Assembly: GCA_032372955.1 (NCBI GenBank)
Contig: GCA_032372955.1_4725.1
Reading direction: 5' to 3' (one strand)
DNA length: 64,000 bases
Source: Escherichia coli
GTDB lineage: Bacteria > Pseudomonadota > Gammaproteobacteria > Enterobacterales > Enterobacteriaceae
Positions 29,909-58,185 of the stretch are shown piece after piece (position 1 is the stretch's first letter; the number at the start of each line of letters is the position of its first letter). A model generated the notes under the pieces. The model was not told the origin of the DNA and did no database searches. It saw only the letters and a list, made by a program, of their open reading frames with translations. The position numbers and the translations under genes are program-made.

Positions 29909-29972
29909 GTGAGCTGACGGTTCACTTAAGCCGCATTAGCTAATGTGCAATTTATTGTAAAGGAAACAAATT

Positions 29973-31295
29973 ATGCCTTCTATTTTTGATCGTCTTGTCG
30001 CAAATCCATCTAACGCACAGCTGGTTCAACTGGCTGCTGAGATCGACCCGGATGCAGCGGCAACCGTTGAAGCAGAACCGGCAGCTGATGCTGCAGCAGC
30101 GGATGAAAACGCTGTAGCTGAACTGACCGAACGTGCTGAAATCGCTGAAGATACCGCAGCTGAAACCGAACTGGCTATCGAAGTTCGTGGTGATATCGAG
30201 CAGGTTGACGCTGTTGTTATCGAAATTGCAAAAGACGACGAAACCGCAGAAGCCATGGATGATGCCATGGATGAACTGACGGAAACCGTTGTCGCAACCG
30301 AAAGCTACCTGAAAGACGGTGGTATGTCTGCACAAACCGCTCAGGAACACATGCGTAATCTGAAACGTCTGTGTGGTACTATCGGTTTCAAAATGCCGGA
30401 AACCATGCCGTCCTTCGAAAGCTTCGGTGGTTCCGCTTCCCGTTACGATGCAACCAACATGATCTTCCTGGAAGAACAAAAATGGTGGCAGAAACTGTGG
30501 GCAACCATCAAGAACTTCCTGAAAACTTCCTGGGAAACCTTCGTGAAGTTCATGGATCGCATCTTCGACGGCGCGACCAAACTGAAAGCACGTGCTGCTA
30601 AACTGAAAGAAATGATCGCCAAGCGTAAAGGCGTTGCTAAAAATACCAAAGTTAAACTGGGTAGCGGCGTTTCTGGCTACATCGGTGGCGACGATCTGGT
30701 TACCGGCGCGACCAAAATCGCTGACACCTTCGAGAAAGCAATGAAGGCTGCTGACGATCGTGCTGATAAATTCGTTGGTACCGTTGTCGCTAAATCTCAC
30801 ACCGAGTACGCTGATAAACTGAACGCTCCGGCGATTGCTGACGTTGCTGGCCCGGCAGGTTGGGGCTTCAAAGCCAACGATGGTAAAGTAACCTGGGAAC
30901 GCTCTGGCGAAGCAAAAGAAGTTGAAGCTACCGTCCTGTCCCTGAACCAGCTGGCTGCTGCGGTTAGCGGTGTTGAAGTACTGGCTGACAAACTGCTGGC
31001 GCTGAAAGGCAACATCGGTAAGAAATCCCAGGGCTTCAAAGACGCTGTTAAATTCGGTGACGATATGGAAGCCGATCTGTCTAAGAAAGGCGAAGTTTCC
31101 GCTCAGGAAAAACAGCGTGTTCAAGCTGTACTGTCTGCACTGAAAGACGCACGTTCCTGCTACGTGAACCCGCAGACTGGTCTGATGAAATACGGTGTTC
31201 AGGCAGGTAACGCTGTCCTGGATGGCGTTGCTAAAATGCTGAAAGAGTACGGCGGCCAGGCGGCTGAGAAACCGGCCGACGCAGCACAGCAGTAA
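29973..31295 (+). CDS. Abundant virion protein, paralog family member 1 (acidic Ala/Glu-rich N-terminal region)
   Basis: Strongly host-optimised codons (CTG, CGT, GGT, AAC, GAA) produce a full-length mirror ORF on the minus strand; N-terminal 100 aa rich in A-x-E motifs; W/K-rich amphipathic segment WWQKLWATIKNFLKTSWETFVKFM. Confidence 0.6.
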   Translation: MPSIFDRLVANPSNAQLVQLAAEIDPDAAATVEAEPAADAAAADENAVAELTERAEIAEDTAAETELAIEVRGDIEQVDAVVIEIAKDDETAEAMDDAMDELTETVVATESYLKDGGMSAQTAQEHMRNLKRLCGTIGFKMPETMPSFESFGGSASRYDATNMIFLEEQKWWQKLWATIKNFLKTSWETFVKFMDRIFDGATKLKARAAKLKEMIAKRKGVAKNTKVKLGSGVSGYIGGDDLVTGATKIADTFEKAMKAADDRADKFVGTVVAKSHTEYADKLNAPAIADVAGPAGWGFKANDGKVTWERSGEAKEVEATVLSLNQLAAAVSGVEVLADKLLALKGNIGKKSQGFKDAVKFGDDMEADLSKKGEVSAQEKQRVQAVLSALKDARSCYVNPQTGLMKYGVQAGNAVLDGVAKMLKEYGGQAAEKPADAAQQ

Positions 31296-49277: not shown

Positions 49278-49426
49278 CGTAGGGAAAAGTTATGCGGCAT
49301 TTTTAGTGTTGTATCACGACCTCAATAACGGTAAGTGTTTACTGATACTATAGTGGCGCATGCACGCGTGTACGCTATGGTCTATCGACCGACTTATATA
49401 AGTTAATTCTGTAAAGGATACTTTCA

Positions 49427-51649
49427 ATGAATGATAAAACCCTTCTTAGCCAACAGGTCGCGGCCACTCGCCAGTTCCTGACCGCTAATGGTAGCAAACC
49501 AGCAGACAAAGGTCTGGAGAACACCTTCCTGTCTATGGAATCTGCTTCTAAGGTTGATTTCAAATCCATGGACAAACTGGTTAACGAAATGGATGTTAAG
49601 AGCTTCAGCAGCGACATCCGTAAAGCAGAAGAACCGGTTCTGTCCATGCTGGGCTTCGAAACCACCACTCCGGAAGAGAAGCAGCGTATTGAAGAACAGC
49701 TGTTCACCATGAACGCACAGCAGGCTCGTGCAGCAGCACTGATCATGCTGGCTCATGGCAACCCGGTGGAATATGCTAAACAAGCACGTTCCATGAACAT
49801 CAGCACCACTCCGTCTGGCCGTGAAGTTGACAGCTCTAACTTCGTCATGATGGCCGCCGATTCCTGCGGTTGCGAATCTGAAGAACTGGTTCAGCTGTCC
49901 TACGACCAGAAAGAACTGCGTGACATGATGCCGTACTCCGTTGTGTTCAACGTGAAGGCTTCTCGTCTGAGCCGCATGGGTAACGAACTGTACAACACCA
50001 TCGTTCTGGCTCCGAACCAGATCGGTTACGACGTATCTTTCCGTCGTCCGCTGGTGTTCAACCACCTGCGTCGTAACGCTGACGGTACTCCGGCTGATTG
50101 GGTACGTCGTCCGCTGCTGGATGCGTTCATGTACAACGACGTTCTGTCCAACGACGTGACCGATCTGCATCCGATCTATCGTGCTGACGATGCTAACGCG
50201 CAGTACTTCGTTGACAAAACTATCGTTGCTCCGCGTGACATCGAAATTAAAGGCGTAACTTACAAAACGTCTTACCTGGCCGTTGATAAACTGATCGACA
50301 TGATCGGTATTGCTGAAGACGATAGCATCCTGGCTAACGGTTACAGCGACAACACCGACGCGCTGGACGCTCAGATCACGCTGACCAAAATCCTGGTGGA
50401 AATCAAATCCACCAAACACAGCAAAACCTCTTACGTACCGTTCGACGTATCTGGTCTGATCACCAACGGTTTCCAGAAATCCCTGGAAGGCGACTTCCGC
50501 AAAATGACCCTGGCGTTCGACACCCACTCCATCTTCGTTGATGAGAACACCGTTGACGTTAAAGGTGCACGAGCTGAAGCGCTGCAGGACATCATCGATT
50601 CGAAATCCGCTGCTCAGCTGGCAATCGAAGTTTACGGTTCTTCCAACGTAGAGAAAGCCGGTCTGCGTGTTAACGGCGCTAACGCTGAACTGTATCGTCT
50701 GGTCGATCGTGACAACATCGAACAACCGCGTAAGGGCGAAGAGTTCAAACAGCTGGCTGAAGACCTGAGCTTCAAACTGGTTGGTTACGAACTGCGTATC
50801 CGCCGTAACAACAGCAACCGTCGTGAGCGTGGTAAGCACCTTGACTTCAACATGAAGCAAGAACGTTACGCAATCGGCCTGCTGGCTCCGTTCTCCATTC
50901 CTCGTCCGCTGGATTGGGAAGAAAACGCTGCTGACCTGGACGTTCTGATCCAAGCTGCTAACGCACGTTTCGACAACCTGATGGTTGAGAAACTGTTCAG
51001 CTACAAAGACGCACTGAAAGCGGTTGCGACCTCTCGCTTCCGTCAGTTCGGCGACATCCAGATCGAAGGTTTCGGTCGTTACCTGATCCGTCCGTGGTTC
51101 GAAGAAATCAATCTGGACCTGGAGAAATCTGTTCAGGGTACCACCACTGCAGAACGTCGTGCTGAAGTGTCCGCTGCGATCATGAACGTGATTCGTGAGA
51201 TGGCATACCGCATGTACTCCGAGTCTGGTTATCAGCCAGCTCTGCAGCTGCTGTCTTCCAACGCTGATGAGAAACCGCGTTGCGTAGTAGCAACTGACAA
51301 CTACATCCCGCAGTTCCTGCAGACCGATGGCGATTTCCGTACCGTTGGTGTGAGCTTCAACTTCGTGGTTGTAGATAACCCGAACGTCATGCTGCGCGAT
51401 AAGATCTTCGTGACCCTGTCTCGTGGTATCCAGGGTTCTCCGGATCCGCTGACCTTCGGTATGTTCCTGTATGTACCGGAACTGGTATCTGTTGCTCAGG
51501 TTACCCGTAACGGTCAGGTTTCTAAAGAAACCATGGTTCAGCCGCGCTGCCGCTTCGTTAACAACTGCCCGCTGCTGGGTCTGATTAACGTTGTGAACCT
51601 GCGTAAGGTCTACACTGAAAACATCAAGCTGCCTGTTCAGACTAACTGA
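49427..51649 (+). CDS. Highly expressed virion structural protein (740 aa), major capsid protein candidate
   Basis: Strongest host-optimised codon usage in the window, producing a 766-aa mirror ORF on the minus strand; size fits jumbo-phage major capsid proteins; followed by a hairpin-TATGC element. Confidence 0.5.
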   Translation: MNDKTLLSQQVAATRQFLTANGSKPADKGLENTFLSMESASKVDFKSMDKLVNEMDVKSFSSDIRKAEEPVLSMLGFETTTPEEKQRIEEQLFTMNAQQARAAALIMLAHGNPVEYAKQARSMNISTTPSGREVDSSNFVMMAADSCGCESEELVQLSYDQKELRDMMPYSVVFNVKASRLSRMGNELYNTIVLAPNQIGYDVSFRRPLVFNHLRRNADGTPADWVRRPLLDAFMYNDVLSNDVTDLHPIYRADDANAQYFVDKTIVAPRDIEIKGVTYKTSYLAVDKLIDMIGIAEDDSILANGYSDNTDALDAQITLTKILVEIKSTKHSKTSYVPFDVSGLITNGFQKSLEGDFRKMTLAFDTHSIFVDENTVDVKGARAEALQDIIDSKSAAQLAIEVYGSSNVEKAGLRVNGANAELYRLVDRDNIEQPRKGEEFKQLAEDLSFKLVGYELRIRRNNSNRRERGKHLDFNMKQERYAIGLLAPFSIPRPLDWEENAADLDVLIQAANARFDNLMVEKLFSYKDALKAVATSRFRQFGDIQIEGFGRYLIRPWFEEINLDLEKSVQGTTTAERRAEVSAAIMNVIREMAYRMYSESGYQPALQLLSSNADEKPRCVVATDNYIPQFLQTDGDFRTVGVSFNFVVVDNPNVMLRDKIFVTLSRGIQGSPDPLTFGMFLYVPELVSVAQVTRNGQVSKETMVQPRCRFVNNCPLLGLINVVNLRKVYTENIKLPVQTN

Positions 51650-51747
51650 ACTACCGTAGCTGCTTCGTTGGACGATATTCTTGACGACAACGTTGCGGAT
51701 GGTTTCATTGCACCGGACATTCATCCGGCACCGTGATACATAAGTCA

Positions 51748-53422: not shown

Positions 53423-53461
53423 CTTTAATCTGCTTAAGCAACTTTCTGAAAGGAGTGTGTG

Positions 53462-55258
53462 ATGGATCCTAGATTCTGCAAAGCTGTCGCTGAGCTTGCA
53501 CCGAAGATGAACGAGAAGATAGCACGCAACATCGTCGTCGATAAGATGCAAGATGTTGAGTCCTATGTTGATCGTCTTTGGCGGAACAGCAAAGATAGTT
53601 TACCTAAGGATCTGGTGTATCATGGCCTGCGTCGCTGCATGGCCCGCGAACAGTTCCACTACTTAAGCGGAGGAAAGAAAACCAAAGGGAAGGATAGCGG
53701 TAAGCTGACCTTCGACCTTGCGCCTTCCGATGTGTTTATGGTGATGCTGGAATTCCGCTGGTACGGCGCAATGGAATCAGGTGACCGTCGTGAACCAGGA
53801 AAGGACTACTGCATTATCCGACACCCTCTCCTATTGCCCGCGGTAGGTCAGGGTGGTAAAATGCGTCTACGTGGTGCGAACTTCATTCTCAGTGCGGTGC
53901 TCGCTGACCCTGTAATCAGTTACACGAAAGACATGGCGTTCATCATGCTTCCGCGTGACAAAATCACGGTTAAACGTACACCGTATCAGTTCCTGAGCAA
54001 TGATACACCGACCGGTATCGATTATCGTCATTACCTATCATTACCCTGGTCGCAAATCTATCATCTTACCAAACAAAGTAAAGTGAACGGTGACAACATC
54101 AACCACACCAGCGTAACCACACTGGGTCACTATCTCTTTGCGAAGTATGGGGTGGGTGAGTGTTTCCGACGTTTTGCAGGCGTCGAAGCCGTAACCGGAC
54201 GGAACCTTGCTGAACGTGATTTTCCGCGCGACCAATGGGTAATCTATCGCACCATGGGGGTTATTCCTAAAGGCTTTAGTATCAGCAAAAGCGGTAAAAG
54301 CCGTAGCGCTAGCGCTGTACGTTACAAGCATCCTGATATTCAAATTGCCGTAAGACGTGGAGGCACGGAACGTATTGTTCTTGGCCTTGTCGGCGCATTC
54401 TTGTATCTCATCGACCGTTATTACGATCGTTTTCCGGAAGACTATCCGGTTGAAGAGTTCGCGAATGCGCCAGACCATTGGCGTACATTACTCGGTTTGA
54501 TTATCTTTAATAACAACAATGCAGATGCGCGTTTGTTGCGTGATGTAAACCACCACATCGACAGTCTCGATCTTTACGTTGACGAGATTCAGCAGAAGAA
54601 GTTCAAACAGGAAAATATTCCTTGCGATGACTTCTACGAATTTATGGCGTATCTGATTGACAATGTTACTATCGAAATGAGTCGTGTTGATACCACGACG
54701 ATGTTCGGTAAGGAATTGATGGTGTTGGAATATGTCATGGAGGATGTGCGTAAGAGCATCTTTAAACTGGGGTTCCATCTTAAAACCACAGAACGTGGTA
54801 AACGACAGAACAACCGTAAAGAGATGACCAATCGCGATGTACAGAAGGCGTTGCGAAATCAAGTTGCGACGGAAGCGATTCTCAATATCCAGAGCAATCG
54901 TGATAAGCGTGAGAAAGTGGCAACATCGATTCAGTCACCTGGTGATTGCATGCTGTTCAAAGTGAGCACGCATGTTGTTCTCCAGAGCCAAAATGCAGGC
55001 GGTGCTGCATTGGCTGACGAGAGTCGTTTGGTTAGTGGTTCCATCCCGTTCTGTGCAAGCTATCTGAATCTTCCACACTCCGAACCAACCGGACGTCAGA
55101 AGTTCAGTATGTACGCACCTATCGACGAACGTGGTCGGTTAATCATTACCCCACAAATTGCAAATGACGTTGCAGCAACCAATGCAGGCTTGAAGAAAGA
55201 CGTCGGTCGATTCGATGAAGAAATTGTAGAAATTAACGATCACGACATAATCGATTGA
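53462..55258 (+). CDS. Hypothetical protein (~598 aa)
   Basis: ORF with AAAGGAGTGTGTG before the ATG. Confidence 0.55.
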   Translation: MDPRFCKAVAELAPKMNEKIARNIVVDKMQDVESYVDRLWRNSKDSLPKDLVYHGLRRCMAREQFHYLSGGKKTKGKDSGKLTFDLAPSDVFMVMLEFRWYGAMESGDRREPGKDYCIIRHPLLLPAVGQGGKMRLRGANFILSAVLADPVISYTKDMAFIMLPRDKITVKRTPYQFLSNDTPTGIDYRHYLSLPWSQIYHLTKQSKVNGDNINHTSVTTLGHYLFAKYGVGECFRRFAGVEAVTGRNLAERDFPRDQWVIYRTMGVIPKGFSISKSGKSRSASAVRYKHPDIQIAVRRGGTERIVLGLVGAFLYLIDRYYDRFPEDYPVEEFANAPDHWRTLLGLIIFNNNNADARLLRDVNHHIDSLDLYVDEIQQKKFKQENIPCDDFYEFMAYLIDNVTIEMSRVDTTTMFGKELMVLEYVMEDVRKSIFKLGFHLKTTERGKRQNNRKEMTNRDVQKALRNQVATEAILNIQSNRDKREKVATSIQSPGDCMLFKVSTHVVLQSQNAGGAALADESRLVSGSIPFCASYLNLPHSEPTGRQKFSMYAPIDERGRLIITPQIANDVAATNAGLKKDVGRFDEEIVEINDHDIID

Positions 55259-55292
55259 CACATAACCGAATAAATAAAAAGGATCGTAAGAA

Positions 55293-57851
55293 ATGTATAA
55301 TGGCAGTAACAACATGTATCAACAAATGGGCTATAGCGAAAACCCTTATACGAGCACGGTTAATTATGCGGCTGAACAGGTTCGTCAGCAACAGTATCAG
55401 CAATCACCGTACGGCGCATATCCGAATAACGCCTATCAACCACCACAATACCAACAACCCTCATATCAGCAGAACTATAACTTCATCACCCAAGAAGCAA
55501 CGATCGTCAAAATCCGTCAAGCTATCTTTAATGTCCTGAAAGACTTCGCTCAGCAAGACAAAATACAAACCGAGTTCGTCGCACGTTATACCAATAACGA
55601 TATGATGATGGAATCGCTTGTTGAAGACTGTTGTTGGAACGTGTTCTCTTACATCAACCCGATGCCGCAGAACGCGTCCGACGACCAGATCGTCTCTGCT
55701 GCCGTGAGCACAGTTGCGCTGTATCATCTTGTAACGTGGCTCTTTGAACCGAATCAGTACCCGGAATATTATCGCGCGATTGAATTATCACGCATTAACC
55801 CGGAAGCCGCGAATAAGTACACGCAGCTGAATAAAAGCGGGAGCCTGGCACAAATCGCGCAGAAGTCACGTGGTTTGAAGCAGCAGGTGATGCAGATGGG
55901 GATGACTTATCGTGGCCCGCAAGCAAGCGCGATGGTTAGTGGCGGGTACGGTCAACCACAACAGCCAGCGTACGCCATGTATGGTGGAACCTATCCGCAA
56001 CCGCAATACCAGCCTAATCCGGCAGTTATGCGTGGTATGGCTCCAACAACGCCAGGATACGGCGCACAACCTCGGCCGACGGTTGTTCAACCACAAGCGC
56101 CATCGTACATCGATTCGAAGGATTGTGCGTTCAACCGTTTGTATGATGTTGGTGATGACGATCCTATCGTTGATGATGCACCTGCTGCTACAGCGCCGCG
56201 TTACGAGGCACCACAACCACGGATTTACTCGACAAATCCTGAAGGAGATATTGGTGGTATCAACGATATCTTTGCAGCGGCTGAACAGTTTGCTGAACAG
56301 TACGAAGAGCCAGAATGGCATGTTAAGGCTGGGCAGCAGAAACCCGTTCAACCTGAACCTGCGCAGGTGAAACCGGAACCCGTTCGTACGGCTCGTTCTG
56401 CTACGGTAACAAAGACCGTTAATCCAATTGATGCGACCGAAGATGCTAAGCGTTACGGTCGTGTTGTTCAACATGAAGAATTTATGCAGATGCGTCTGAA
56501 AGCCAAAGACTTTGCACCTAATAGTCGTTGGCCGACGTTGTATGACTTCAGACACTTCGCTCGTCGGGCACGTATCGACGAAAACGGAATTCTTCATGAA
56601 ACCATTGTTGACATTACATCCCTCACGGAGGAAGAAGTGGAATACATCGAACTTGAATCAGATCCAACCGCTCGTCGTATGGCAGAGCAGGAAATGGCAA
56701 AACTGGATCGTATCGCGCAAGCAGAAGTTGTTCGTGTTAGCCTTAACAAACCGGTTCAGCGTGAGCCAATCGTTGTCGGTGAGCAGCGCGAAATGAAACT
56801 GTTTACCGTCACCGACGCGATCGCAGCGTCAAGCGTTGAGGATGCTGAAACCAAAGCTGCGGTAGCGATCATCCAGCAGACCAACACCGACGTCAACCAA
56901 AACGACGCATTAGCATTCCTGGCTACCGTCAATTCCTATCTGGGAACCTATACCGACAAAGAGCTAGATGCAATCCATGAATTCCTGGATGCGTTGTCTA
57001 TTGATAAGGGTCGTAGCGACGATATCAAAGCTTATCGTCAGATCATGCAACAGTATCGTGATGTCATTCCTCTGCGTATTTGGCATTTCCTGAACGATAG
57101 CATGACCAAAGACGTTAACAAGCTGATCAAACGTATCGTACCGAAGAACTTCTCTGAAACCACCATCTCTAGCTTCGTTGATGATATCGGAGAACTGTCC
57201 GGTTGGCTGATTCACGATCTTAAAATGGACCAGAAGTTCATTGAAGATGAATTCTCCAATTGCTACTACACCTGGGTCAACATGCTGAAGTGTCTCTACT
57301 GCAATCGCGATGGCGAAGGTCAGTGGAACATTCGTCTTTCCATGGCTGAACTGTACAACATGCATGACTACCTGAAAGCCGCTCACGAAAAATCTGCAGC
57401 GAATCGTGAACGTCATCTGGTTGCCATGAGTGAGTATCGTGCAGAACTGGAGAAAGATGGCTCTCTGGATGCTGACGAAATCGAACGTCGTTTGGCGGAT
57501 GCGGCTATCGAGGATATGCGTGTTAATCCAGACATCGTTACCGACGAAGATAGCAACGATGCTTACTGGTTCAATCACAGCGTATTCGCGATGCGTCCGC
57601 ATGTTGTTGTTCGCGTACCGACCAACGCCAAGATTCTGAAGCTGAACCAGAGCGGTTACACTCACGCATCGGCTGCAACCAACCCAAGCATTGCTCGTAT
57701 GCTGGATCAGGTGTTCAAGACCTTCGAAACCAAAGTAAAAGGTCTGCAATCTGTTACTGTAATTCTGAGCGATGATACTCGTCTGAAAGCAGTACGTACG
57801 GTAAACGGTATTACCGCTTCCGAGTATCTGCTGGAACGTGAAGAGCAGTAA
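55293..57851 (+). CDS. Large protein (852 aa) with Q/Y/P-rich low-complexity N-terminal regions
   Basis: AAAAAGGATCGTAAGAA before the ATG; aa 1-60 (YQQMGYSENPYTS...QYQQSPYGAYPNNAYQPPQYQQPSYQQNY) and aa ~215-300 (GGYGQPQQPAYAMYGGTYPQPQYQPNP...) are Q/Y/P/G-rich. Confidence 0.6.
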   Translation: MYNGSNNMYQQMGYSENPYTSTVNYAAEQVRQQQYQQSPYGAYPNNAYQPPQYQQPSYQQNYNFITQEATIVKIRQAIFNVLKDFAQQDKIQTEFVARYTNNDMMMESLVEDCCWNVFSYINPMPQNASDDQIVSAAVSTVALYHLVTWLFEPNQYPEYYRAIELSRINPEAANKYTQLNKSGSLAQIAQKSRGLKQQVMQMGMTYRGPQASAMVSGGYGQPQQPAYAMYGGTYPQPQYQPNPAVMRGMAPTTPGYGAQPRPTVVQPQAPSYIDSKDCAFNRLYDVGDDDPIVDDAPAATAPRYEAPQPRIYSTNPEGDIGGINDIFAAAEQFAEQYEEPEWHVKAGQQKPVQPEPAQVKPEPVRTARSATVTKTVNPIDATEDAKRYGRVVQHEEFMQMRLKAKDFAPNSRWPTLYDFRHFARRARIDENGILHETIVDITSLTEEEVEYIELESDPTARRMAEQEMAKLDRIAQAEVVRVSLNKPVQREPIVVGEQREMKLFTVTDAIAASSVEDAETKAAVAIIQQTNTDVNQNDALAFLATVNSYLGTYTDKELDAIHEFLDALSIDKGRSDDIKAYRQIMQQYRDVIPLRIWHFLNDSMTKDVNKLIKRIVPKNFSETTISSFVDDIGELSGWLIHDLKMDQKFIEDEFSNCYYTWVNMLKCLYCNRDGEGQWNIRLSMAELYNMHDYLKAAHEKSAANRERHLVAMSEYRAELEKDGSLDADEIERRLADAAIEDMRVNPDIVTDEDSNDAYWFNHSVFAMRPHVVVRVPTNAKILKLNQSGYTHASAATNPSIARMLDQVFKTFETKVKGLQSVTVILSDDTRLKAVRTVNGITASEYLLEREEQ

Positions 57852-57912: not shown

Positions 57913-58185
57913 ATGAGTCAATATAAACTCATTACCGTCTCTGTGGATGCAAAGGACTTACGCGAAATTACGTTAGCAGCCAACGCAGTTCAACAGGACA
58001 GTGAACTGACGGCATATGAACGTTACCAGCTTTTCCTCTCGATAAGCGACACGGTAGCACGTATGCAACAGAAGTACCAGGTTCAGCTAACCGTAATCGA
58101 CAAAGGCGCTGTGATCCCACCACACCCTAGTTGGCGCGTACTGAGAAGCAAACTCACCACAATTGAATCGTGGTTAACCTCGTAA
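57913..58185 (+). CDS. Hypothetical small protein (90 aa)
   Basis: ORF with AAGGAAACCGT before the ATG; followed by a bidirectional terminator. Confidence 0.45.
   Translation: MSQYKLITVSVDAKDLREITLAANAVQQDSELTAYERYQLFLSISDTVARMQQKYQVQLTVIDKGAVIPPHPSWRVLRSKLTTIESWLTS

Follow-up and report, generated by a model that had tools for sequence, protein, structure and literature searches.

Which protein is encoded by the open reading frame (ORF) at positions 55293–57851 of a 64,000-nucleotide stretch of DNA (the window; contig GCA_032372955.1_4725.1, filed under Escherichia coli), and what might its low-complexity regions (LCRs) do? A preliminary description made from the letters alone had pointed to two segments dominated by Gln, Tyr, Pro, Gly, Ala and Asn, one within the first ~60 amino acids (aa) and one around aa 215–300, and had suggested that they could nucleate a condensate. 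According to the ORF list and its translation the ORF is real, starts with ATG and encodes 852 aa. By megablast the window is ~97 % identical to the coliphage vB_EcoM_Goslar, a nucleus-forming jumbo phage with an Escherichia host, and the ORF corresponds to Goslar_00038 (gp38; QBO63831.1 / YP_009820723.1; 97.2 % identity at the nucleotide and 99.1 % at the amino acid level), which is labelled 'hypothetical protein' in GenBank. We hold with high confidence that Goslar-type gp38 is an ortholog of JADA with a disordered tail and a disordered linker. It adds a divergent protein to a family already described, and it bears a trait that has apparently drawn no comment before.

Identity of the gp38-like protein

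JADA is confined to Chimalliviridae and invariably encoded downstream of the gene for a subunit of the non-virion RNA polymerase (nvRNAP) (PMC12931631). In Pa36 and PhiKZ it is an essential protein that is made early and in abundance; it is diffuse in cells not yet infected and gathers in foci at the early-phage-infection (EPI) vesicle once infection has begun, and PhiKZ gp124 is newly synthesised, early and abundant 10 min after infection (PMC12931631). The C-domain of Pa36 gp316 forms a closed ring-like homodimer and is sufficient for sensing by Avs5, for which JADA is the trigger, and a role in DNA binding or transcription has been suggested (PMC12931631). Furthermore, when PhiKZ124 is knocked down with antisense oligonucleotides, phage transcription is strongly disturbed at 30 min (PMC12571901), and in Churi the ortholog was among the early proteins detected (PMC11849849).

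The assignment of gp38 is based on gene order, profile homology of the C-domain and Foldseek matches; judged from these, gp38 is a divergent ortholog of Pa36 gp316 and PhiKZ gp124 (Protein Data Bank (PDB) entry 9RP3). Like PhiKZ-type JADA, it is encoded directly after, and co-oriented with, an nvRNAP subunit gene, which is a defining feature of JADA loci. In 17 of 17 other chimallivirus loci inspected, such a gene is directly followed by a same-strand ORF of 516–911 aa (PhiKZ-like Bobae, Eowyn, RSF1, Deimos-Minion, PCH45, Vibrio 2 TSL-2019, 201phi2-1, Miami, FLC9, FBKp24, Ea277G, Yaphecito, Yong MS32, Aeromonas PS1, an EL-like phage, EarlPhillipIV and the metagenomic contig of the homolog P0005). 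The conserved order comprises a helicase, the major capsid protein (MCP), a gp122-like protein, the nvRNAP subunit and the 516–911-aa protein. In PhiKZ the gene in the equivalent position is PHIKZ124, and its product gp124 is practically identical to PDB chain 9rp3_A ('Gp316/JADA').

Identity between gp38 and PhiKZ gp124 amounts to only about 15–18 %. Pairwise BLASTP aligned a collinear C-terminal stretch with PhiKZ gp124 (E = 4e-4) and Eowyn gp146 (E = 4e-5), and hhalign of a Goslar-clade alignment against nine other family members gave 99.1 % probability (E = 4.9e-19, 255 columns), pairing gp38 aa 393–673 with PhiKZ gp124 aa 360–623. With the C-domains only and relaxed settings, 366 columns reaching the C-terminus (aa ~849) were aligned (98 %, E = 1.6e-13). 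When the Goslar-clade profile was compared with the PDB, 9rp3_A ranked first at a non-significant E = 1.3. The C-domain of gp38 contains the family motif W..L...T...N......TI(D/S)xFxxDxxEL and, at the C-terminus, the motif P...L...SD..L..R...LL.

Structure comparison, made with low-confidence models, pointed in the same direction. AlphaFold2 was run with a 5-sequence alignment (mean predicted local distance difference test score (pLDDT) 37.5, uninformative) and with 12 sequences (49.7, modestly better). Foldseek searches of the PDB returned 9rp3_A/B as the only significant match (E = 3.5e-4, probability 1.00, 471 columns), with the next one at E = 0.44. Against BFVD 15 significant matches were obtained (E 1e-10 to 3e-4), all of them jumbo-phage proteins of 620–981 aa, with alignments to orthologs over 844–1147 columns; among them are the orthologs of RSF1, Eowyn and Vibrio 2 TSL-2019, which synteny alone had singled out.

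The family as such is known, and the membership of Goslar gp38 is new: the protein is unannotated and lies beyond the reach of BLAST. Neither Pfam nor PHROGs contains a family for the gp38-like ORF; the only Pfam line, Cas9_C_2 (E = 0.0019), reached 18 bits against a cut-off of 27 and was rejected as sub-threshold. Megablast and tblastn searches of 50,697 phage records matched gp38 to Goslar alone, phmmer with the C-terminal 577 aa against 1.84 billion representatives yielded no more than two clusters, that of Goslar and P0005 (38 % identical), and phmmer against the PDB gave no match for gp38. Neither the BLAST database search nor phmmer thus connects gp38 with PhiKZ-type JADA. Three further homolog searches, in which the best 8000 candidates by shared words were scored, found few proteins, the C-domain alignment giving four; we suspect that low-complexity words crowd the candidate pool in the full-length searches. 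In the literature, a match to 'Goslar' together with 'gp38' turned out to be PhiKZ gp38, a different protein, the 'gp204' of the ChmC paper is PhiPA3 gp204 and unrelated to JADA, and the supplement of the chimallivirus core-genome paper holds no usable entry for the gp38 gene. The PhiPA3 ortholog (HQ630627/NC_028999, 125956–128023) matches in two pieces, annotated as genes 140 and 141, as would result from a frameshift, from an error in sequencing or from a gene that is split.

The domain layout of gp38 (helical N-domain, long disordered linker, C-domain; Table 1) is collinear throughout the family alignment and corresponds to that of PhiKZ-type JADA, in which the N-domain is helical, the disordered linker measures at least 100 aa and the C-domain ~450 aa. 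Compared with PhiKZ-type proteins, the Goslar clade has three additions: a 65-aa prion-like N-terminal tail, a longer linker (~185 versus ~100 aa) and a helical insertion of about 60–70 aa in the C-domain. The insertion, which P0005 and P0011 share and PhiKZ-type JADA lacks, is predicted with more confidence than any other part of the AlphaFold2 model. The homodimer has been described for Pa36 gp316, and essentiality, timing, localisation and Avs5 activation for Pa36 and PhiKZ; on Goslar gp38 the literature searches turned up nothing beyond a table of virion mass spectrometry.

Table 1 Features of the gp38-like gene and its surroundings in the window
Feature	Coordinates	Strand	Basis
nvRNAP subunit gene (Goslar gp39; PhiKZ gp123 homolog)	53459–55258	+	phrog_2943 'polymerase', E = 7e-120
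Shine-Dalgarno-like AAGGA, 9 nt 5' of the gp38-like ATG	55279–55283	+	read from sequence
Whole ORF, gp38-like JADA ortholog (assigned from sequence and predicted structure), 852 aa	55293–57851	+	ORF, Goslar identity, hhalign, Foldseek
LCR1, aa 1–65, Q/Y/N/P-rich prion-like N-terminal tail, predicted disordered	55293–55487	+	composition, PLAAC-/PAPA-style scores, pLDDT 33–37, Tyr spacing
N-terminal all-helical domain, aa 66–205; positional equivalent of the JADA N-domain (Pa36 gp316 aa 1–170)	55488–55907	+	predicted helices, pLDDT about 50–67
LCR2, aa 206–275, P/Q/G/Y/A-rich, disordered, first part of linker	55908–56117	+	composition, pLDDT 26–29, scores, family position
Second linker part, aa 276–390, acidic, Pro/Ala-rich, predicted disordered	56118–56462	+	composition; pLDDT 28–36; short helix aa ~324–336; FoldIndex < 0
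C-terminal JADA domain, aa ~391–852	56463–57848	+	homologous to cryo-electron microscopy (cryo-EM) ring-dimer domain (9RP3, aa 270–721)
Goslar-clade helical insertion, aa ~683–745, inside C-domain	57339–57527	+	family alignment; predicted long helices aa 690–744, pLDDT up to 80

Composition and conservation of the low-complexity segments

The first of the two segments was located correctly in the preliminary description. LCR1 consists of Q (22 %), Y (18 %), N (14 %), P (9 %) and S (8 %) in the main, with 5–7 % charged residues. A second segment rich in Q, Y, P and G also exists, but the block spans aa ~206–275 and not aa 215–300; it contains P (19 %), Q (14 %), G (13 %), Y (11 %) and A (11 %), with 3–5 % charged residues. 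From aa 276 onward the disorder persists, but the chain becomes acidic and Pro/Ala-rich (about 25–33 % charged). FoldIndex is below 0 over aa 1–70 and 169–470, and in both AlphaFold2 runs aa 1–55 and 206–381 have a pLDDT of 26–37 and almost no secondary structure; each stretch contains a single helix of low confidence (aa 20–34 and aa ~324–336).

Prion-like character was scored with a PLAAC-style log-odds score, an approximate re-implementation with approximate parameters and not the official PLAAC, and with a PAPA-style score, likewise an approximate re-implementation of our own, for which the published threshold is 0.05. Sup35N, FUS-LC and the linker of E. coli SSB served as approximate reference sequences. 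On the PLAAC-style scale the best 60-aa segment of the gp38-like ORF reaches +49.8 bits and lies in LCR1, whereas the runner-up among the 41 non-overlapping ORFs of at least 150 aa in the window stays at −13.8 bits, the mean over all 60-aa segments of the window's ORFs being −46.3 bits (sd 12.7). The gp38-like ORF is the only one of the 41 with prion-like segments, so that the composition, described beforehand as unusual for phage proteins, is indeed exceptional within the window. LCR2 scores +15 to +24 bits; Sup35N, FUS-LC and the SSB linker give 82, 70 and 38 bits, respectively. In the PAPA-style test aa 1–31 of LCR1 lie above the threshold (0.16–0.06), with FoldIndex < 0, whereas LCR2 falls below it (−0.03 to −0.22) because it is proline-rich. 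LCR1 therefore passes both approximate predictors and LCR2 only the PLAAC-style one. The Jensen–Shannon divergence of LCR1 is 0.13 to Sup35N, 0.16 to FUS-LC and 0.31 to the phage proteome. By these compositional measures LCR1 is clearly and LCR2 weakly prion-like.

The 13 aromatic residues of LCR1 are spaced evenly (gaps 7, 5, 5, 6, 10, 5, 3, 5, 5, 5, 4, 2), with a coefficient of variation of 0.37 compared with 0.79 in shuffled sequences (P = 0.002) and a Tyr periodicity of roughly Y-x4; no tandem repeat underlying the LCRs was found at the DNA level. LCR1 thus shares with Sup35 N and FUS LC a Q/N/Y/G/S/P-rich, almost uncharged and predicted disordered stretch of ~60 aa and the evenly spaced Tyr of a 'stickers and spacers' pattern. 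It differs by its lower score (~50 versus 82 and 70 bits); moreover, the gp38 segments are richer in proline, which disfavours amyloid, and LCR2 fails the PAPA-style test. The likeness is one of composition and not of homology.

LCR2 forms the start of the disordered inter-domain linker that is found in the whole JADA family. Its position coincides with the Q/P/G/Y-rich linkers of PhiKZ gp124, 201phi2-1 gp204, Eowyn gp146, Deimos-Minion gp4, FLC9 gp89 and the protein P0008. In 17 of the 24 family members the linker or tail is Q/N/G/Y/P-rich, and in the same number a 60-aa segment scores positive for prion-like composition, either where the linker lies (beginning at about aa 95–190) or at the N-terminus. 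Six members possess instead an Arg-rich linker (RGG/RD/RS-like, with 14–22 Arg per 60 aa and 75–95 % R+G+D+S+E; for example DRRGYSRDDRGRGGFGRGPEQRGRYEDRDTRGRYDDRRGY), namely those of RSF1, PCH45, FBKp24, its relative P0009, Ea277G and Yaphecito. Loci with Arg-rich linkers are filed as L004 (RSF1), L006 (PCH45), L011 (FBKp24), L012 (Ea277G) and L013 (Yaphecito), the proteins as P0009 and P0010. The EL-like protein alone has neither a prion-like segment nor an Arg-rich linker. Judged by sequence composition, the same linker position thus bears two alternative interaction-prone chemistries. The JADA paper appears not to discuss linker composition or the distribution of the two chemistries (PMC12931631).

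LCR1 is not a family-wide element. It is an extra tail of the Goslar sub-clade which occurs independently in several other lineages, N-terminal tails rich in Q, P, M, Y and G being present in the Goslar clade, the Agrican-like Erwinia phages, Vibrio 2 TSL-2019, Miami and Aeromonas PS1. The close relatives P0001–P0004 keep LCR1, which is longer in P0003 and P0004 by extra Q/P/Y-rich residues (net +11 aa); in P0005 and P0011 (33–38 % identical) little more than a few N/G/Q residues are left of it.

In the Goslar clade the LCRs do not evolve fast, their conservation matching that of the folded domains: between the window and P0004 the identity is 75 % for LCR1, 86 % for LCR2, 75 % for the N-domain and 85 % for the C-domain. 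All eight Tyr of LCR2 are invariant in the clade, and 17 synonymous and 4 non-synonymous codon changes separate both LCRs of the window from those of Goslar. As an observation in its own right, LCR2 shows 21 synonymous differences per 100 codons to Goslar, with few amino acid changes, compared with 3–8 in the rest of the gene; it is a local hotspot of silent divergence.

Proposed clustering at the infection vesicle and its alternatives

We lean slightly towards the explanation that gp38 is a JADA ortholog whose LCRs aid clustering at the EPI vesicle. The JADA dimer would carry four low-complexity segments, two tails and two linkers, in which Tyr 'stickers' among Q/P/G/N 'spacers' may allow flexible, multivalent and weak contacts with each other or with partners. 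Such contacts could help JADA to accumulate at the EPI vesicle or the nascent nucleus, perhaps together with nascent RNA or the nvRNAP expressed alongside it, and lineages with Arg/Gly/Asp-rich linkers might reach the same end electrostatically or via RNA. To judge from composition, the formation of a condensate by the gp38 LCRs, as first proposed, is plausible; that the LCRs drive clustering or condensation, and are not mere tethers, is doubtful, and the suggested nucleation of a replication or assembly factory is conjecture. The localisation data from PhiKZ-type phages are compatible with LCR-driven clustering, without demonstrating it.

The phage family already offers a precedent for condensate-type behaviour in ChmC (Goslar gp176), which has a Whirly-like fold. 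Like JADA, ChmC is a chimallivirus core protein that is needed for infection and tied to phage gene expression. However, its sequence is unrelated to gp38, it associates with the nuclear shell and mRNA and not with the EPI vesicle, and its condensation proceeds via RNA binding by a folded domain and not via a Q/Y-rich LCR. Phase separation is discussed in the ChmC paper, which includes a condensate analysis (bioRxiv 10.1101/2023.09.22.559000).

Several points weigh against the preferred explanation. On the side of identity, the Foldseek match to 9RP3 has a TM score of 0.26 and a root-mean-square deviation of 14 Å because the AlphaFold2 model is of low confidence (mean pLDDT 49.7; C-domain about 35–80), and the fold identity rests mainly on sequence and 3Di profiles. 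The isolated N-domains gave a weak hhalign match (E = 0.005, probability 7 %, 83 collinear columns), by which homology of the N-domain is not established. On the side of clustering, the prion-like scores come from our approximate re-implementations and not from the official tools, and the invariance of Tyr and Phe over other LCR residues in the Goslar clade (19 of 21 versus 83 of 114 positions; one-sided Fisher P = 0.066) is only a trend. A term search of the JADA paper found neither 'condensate' nor 'low-complexity', and its section on JADA describes the region as a linker that is 'disordered or flexible' and no more than that (PMC12931631). Purified Pa36 JADA is a soluble dimer (cryo-EM at 2.1 Å) and diffuse when expressed alone (PMC12931631); therefore, the LCRs alone do not drive assembly at those concentrations. 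Finally, the variation in linker chemistry (Q/Y/P, R/G/D or, in the EL-like protein, neither) fits the view that any disordered spacer will do.

This view leads to the main rival, a passive tether, which is a serious possibility though short of probable. The segments would be entropic spacers joining the N-domain and the ring-dimer C-domain, with a composition that drifts under selection for disorder, solubility and protease resistance. Such drift would account for a linker whose chemistry shifts radically (Q/Y/P/G/M, R/G/D/S or none clear in the EL-like protein) while position and approximate length are kept, and for an LCR1 that is absent or short in the nearest outgroup P0005/P0011. The monodisperse dimer obtained on purification, the diffuse state in uninfected cells (PMC12931631) and the PAPA-style score of LCR2 below the threshold agree with it as well. 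However, neutral spacers usually diverge faster than folded domains, whereas the LCRs of the Goslar clade are conserved to the same degree (75–86 % versus 75–85 %), with every LCR2 Tyr invariant, and the Tyr spacing of LCR1 is non-random (P = 0.002). Moreover, Q/Y-rich and RGG/RD-like sequences are two classic interaction-prone types of disordered region, unlike bland GS-like spacers.

A stronger form of the clustering explanation, which we regard as unlikely, makes JADA the scaffold of a layer without a membrane that surrounds the EPI vesicle and the nascent nucleus. Ring dimers cross-linked via Tyr-rich or RGG/RD segments would concentrate nvRNAP, phage mRNA and possibly ribosomes at the point where the injected polymerase hands transcription over to the non-virion one. 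The boldest version, drawn by analogy, would have the tails act like the FG-repeats of nucleoporins and form a selective phase at exit or entry sites. If a scaffold of this kind existed, the two linker chemistries would be two evolutionary solutions to one phase-forming task.

It is very unlikely that gp38 travels inside the capsid and enters the cell along with the DNA, its disordered tails serving packaging, passage through the phage tail or immediate action at the EPI vesicle. The protein was found in CsCl-purified Goslar virions (YP_009820723.1; 26 peptides, 28 % coverage, an estimated 17–39 copies per virion, no model in the cryo-EM structure; bioRxiv 10.64898/2026.04.21.720040, Table S4), and its gene lies amid head, portal and baseplate genes (gp41 MCP, gp36 portal, gp35 baseplate protein). 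In the same dataset, however, chimallin and PhuZ are present at an estimated >100 copies (bioRxiv 10.64898/2026.04.21.720040, Table S4); therefore, abundant intracellular proteins contaminate the virion preparation. Furthermore, the 201phi2-1 record notes MCP gp200 as 'identified as virion protein by mass spectrometry' and carries no such note for the ortholog gp204, and PhiKZ gp124 is newly made early in infection (PMC12931631). A stoichiometric virion component with an ordered N-terminus, which would have spoken against a prion-like domain, is thus not what was found: at ~17–39 copies in a contaminated preparation and with the N-terminus predicted to be disordered, gp38 was judged unlikely to be such a component. 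The gp38 peptides among those listed (aa 328–345 and aa 722–733) are uninformative on the N-terminus, the tryptic peptides of the LCRs being 29–42 aa long and hard to detect. One of them, AAAEQFAEQYEEPEWHVK (aa 328–345), begins after Phe327 and has a non-tryptic N-terminus; the chain could have been cut in the disordered linker within the sample, or the search could have produced an artefact.

In E. coli SSB the disordered linker has a part in the cooperativity and the phase separation of the protein. Like LCR2, it is a Q/P/G-rich, uncharged bacterial disordered region of similar length, and the octapeptide GYGQPQQP (55944–55967, aa 218–225) is identical in 7 of 8 positions to GWGQPQQP of the SSB linker (1eqq_A, within aa 131–162) of the host E. 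coli. The SSB linker differs in lacking the Tyr pattern and in ending in an acidic tip motif which gp38 does not have there, and the match to LCR2 is not statistically significant; the likeness is probably compositional. That GYGQPQQP and the PQ/GY repeats of LCR2 imitate this linker or another host disordered region and dock on replication or division proteins is hardly credible: the SSB linker does provide the next PDB profile matches after 9RP3 (gp38 aa ~214–244 versus SSB aa 131–162), and a review, citing Van den Bossche 2014, counts PhiKZ gp124 among the early proteins found attached to the DnaX and FtsZ complexes of the host (PMC11849849), but the SSB match (E = 5.5–6.8) is expected from compositional similarity alone and the motif is not kept in the JADA of other E. 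coli, Klebsiella and Erwinia phages with R-rich linkers.

Neighbouring genes and meaning for the family

The gap between the stop of the nvRNAP subunit gene and the start of the gp38-like gene is 34 nt, which is why the two genes are likely co-transcribed. No terminator-like site was found between them, and a scan for sigma-70 promoters and terminators around the gp38-like gene gave nothing exceeding the shuffled expectation. By tblastn the nvRNAP-subunit ORF has homologs in 218 jumbo-phage records, some of which are labelled as nvRNAP subunit or RNA polymerase beta subunit. The JADA-like gene is followed by a 90-aa ORF (57913–58185, plus strand; Goslar gp37), which is barely seen in the virion mass spectrometry (1 peptide). 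Small ORFs trail the JADA-like gene in many other loci, too, e.g. one of 110 aa in the P0005 contig and one of 109 aa in 201phi2-1.

The MCP gene (gp41; 49427–51649, plus strand) contains no TTA, CTA or TCA in 740 codons, compared with 1–3.7 % in other genes here (P about 4e-8), and as a consequence its antisense strand is open across 766 aa (49424–51724, minus strand). The same codons are missing from the 440 codons at 29973–31295 (plus strand), with an open antisense frame at 29952–31124 (minus strand). Both open frames are probably due to the extreme codon bias of highly expressed late genes and do not represent true antisense genes.

JADA is among the few chimallivirus core proteins that are essential, early, abundant and sensed by a bacterial immune system. 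With the recognition of gp38 as a JADA ortholog the family extends to an E. coli model phage. For Goslar a toolset of dCas13d knock-down, cryo-electron tomography and GFP localisation already exists. If the LCRs are inert spacers, the finding shrinks to an improvement of annotation. Nearly every family member bears an interaction-prone tail or linker, either of the Q/Y/P type or Arg-rich, and these segments offer a testable handle on how JADA may gather at the infection vesicle.

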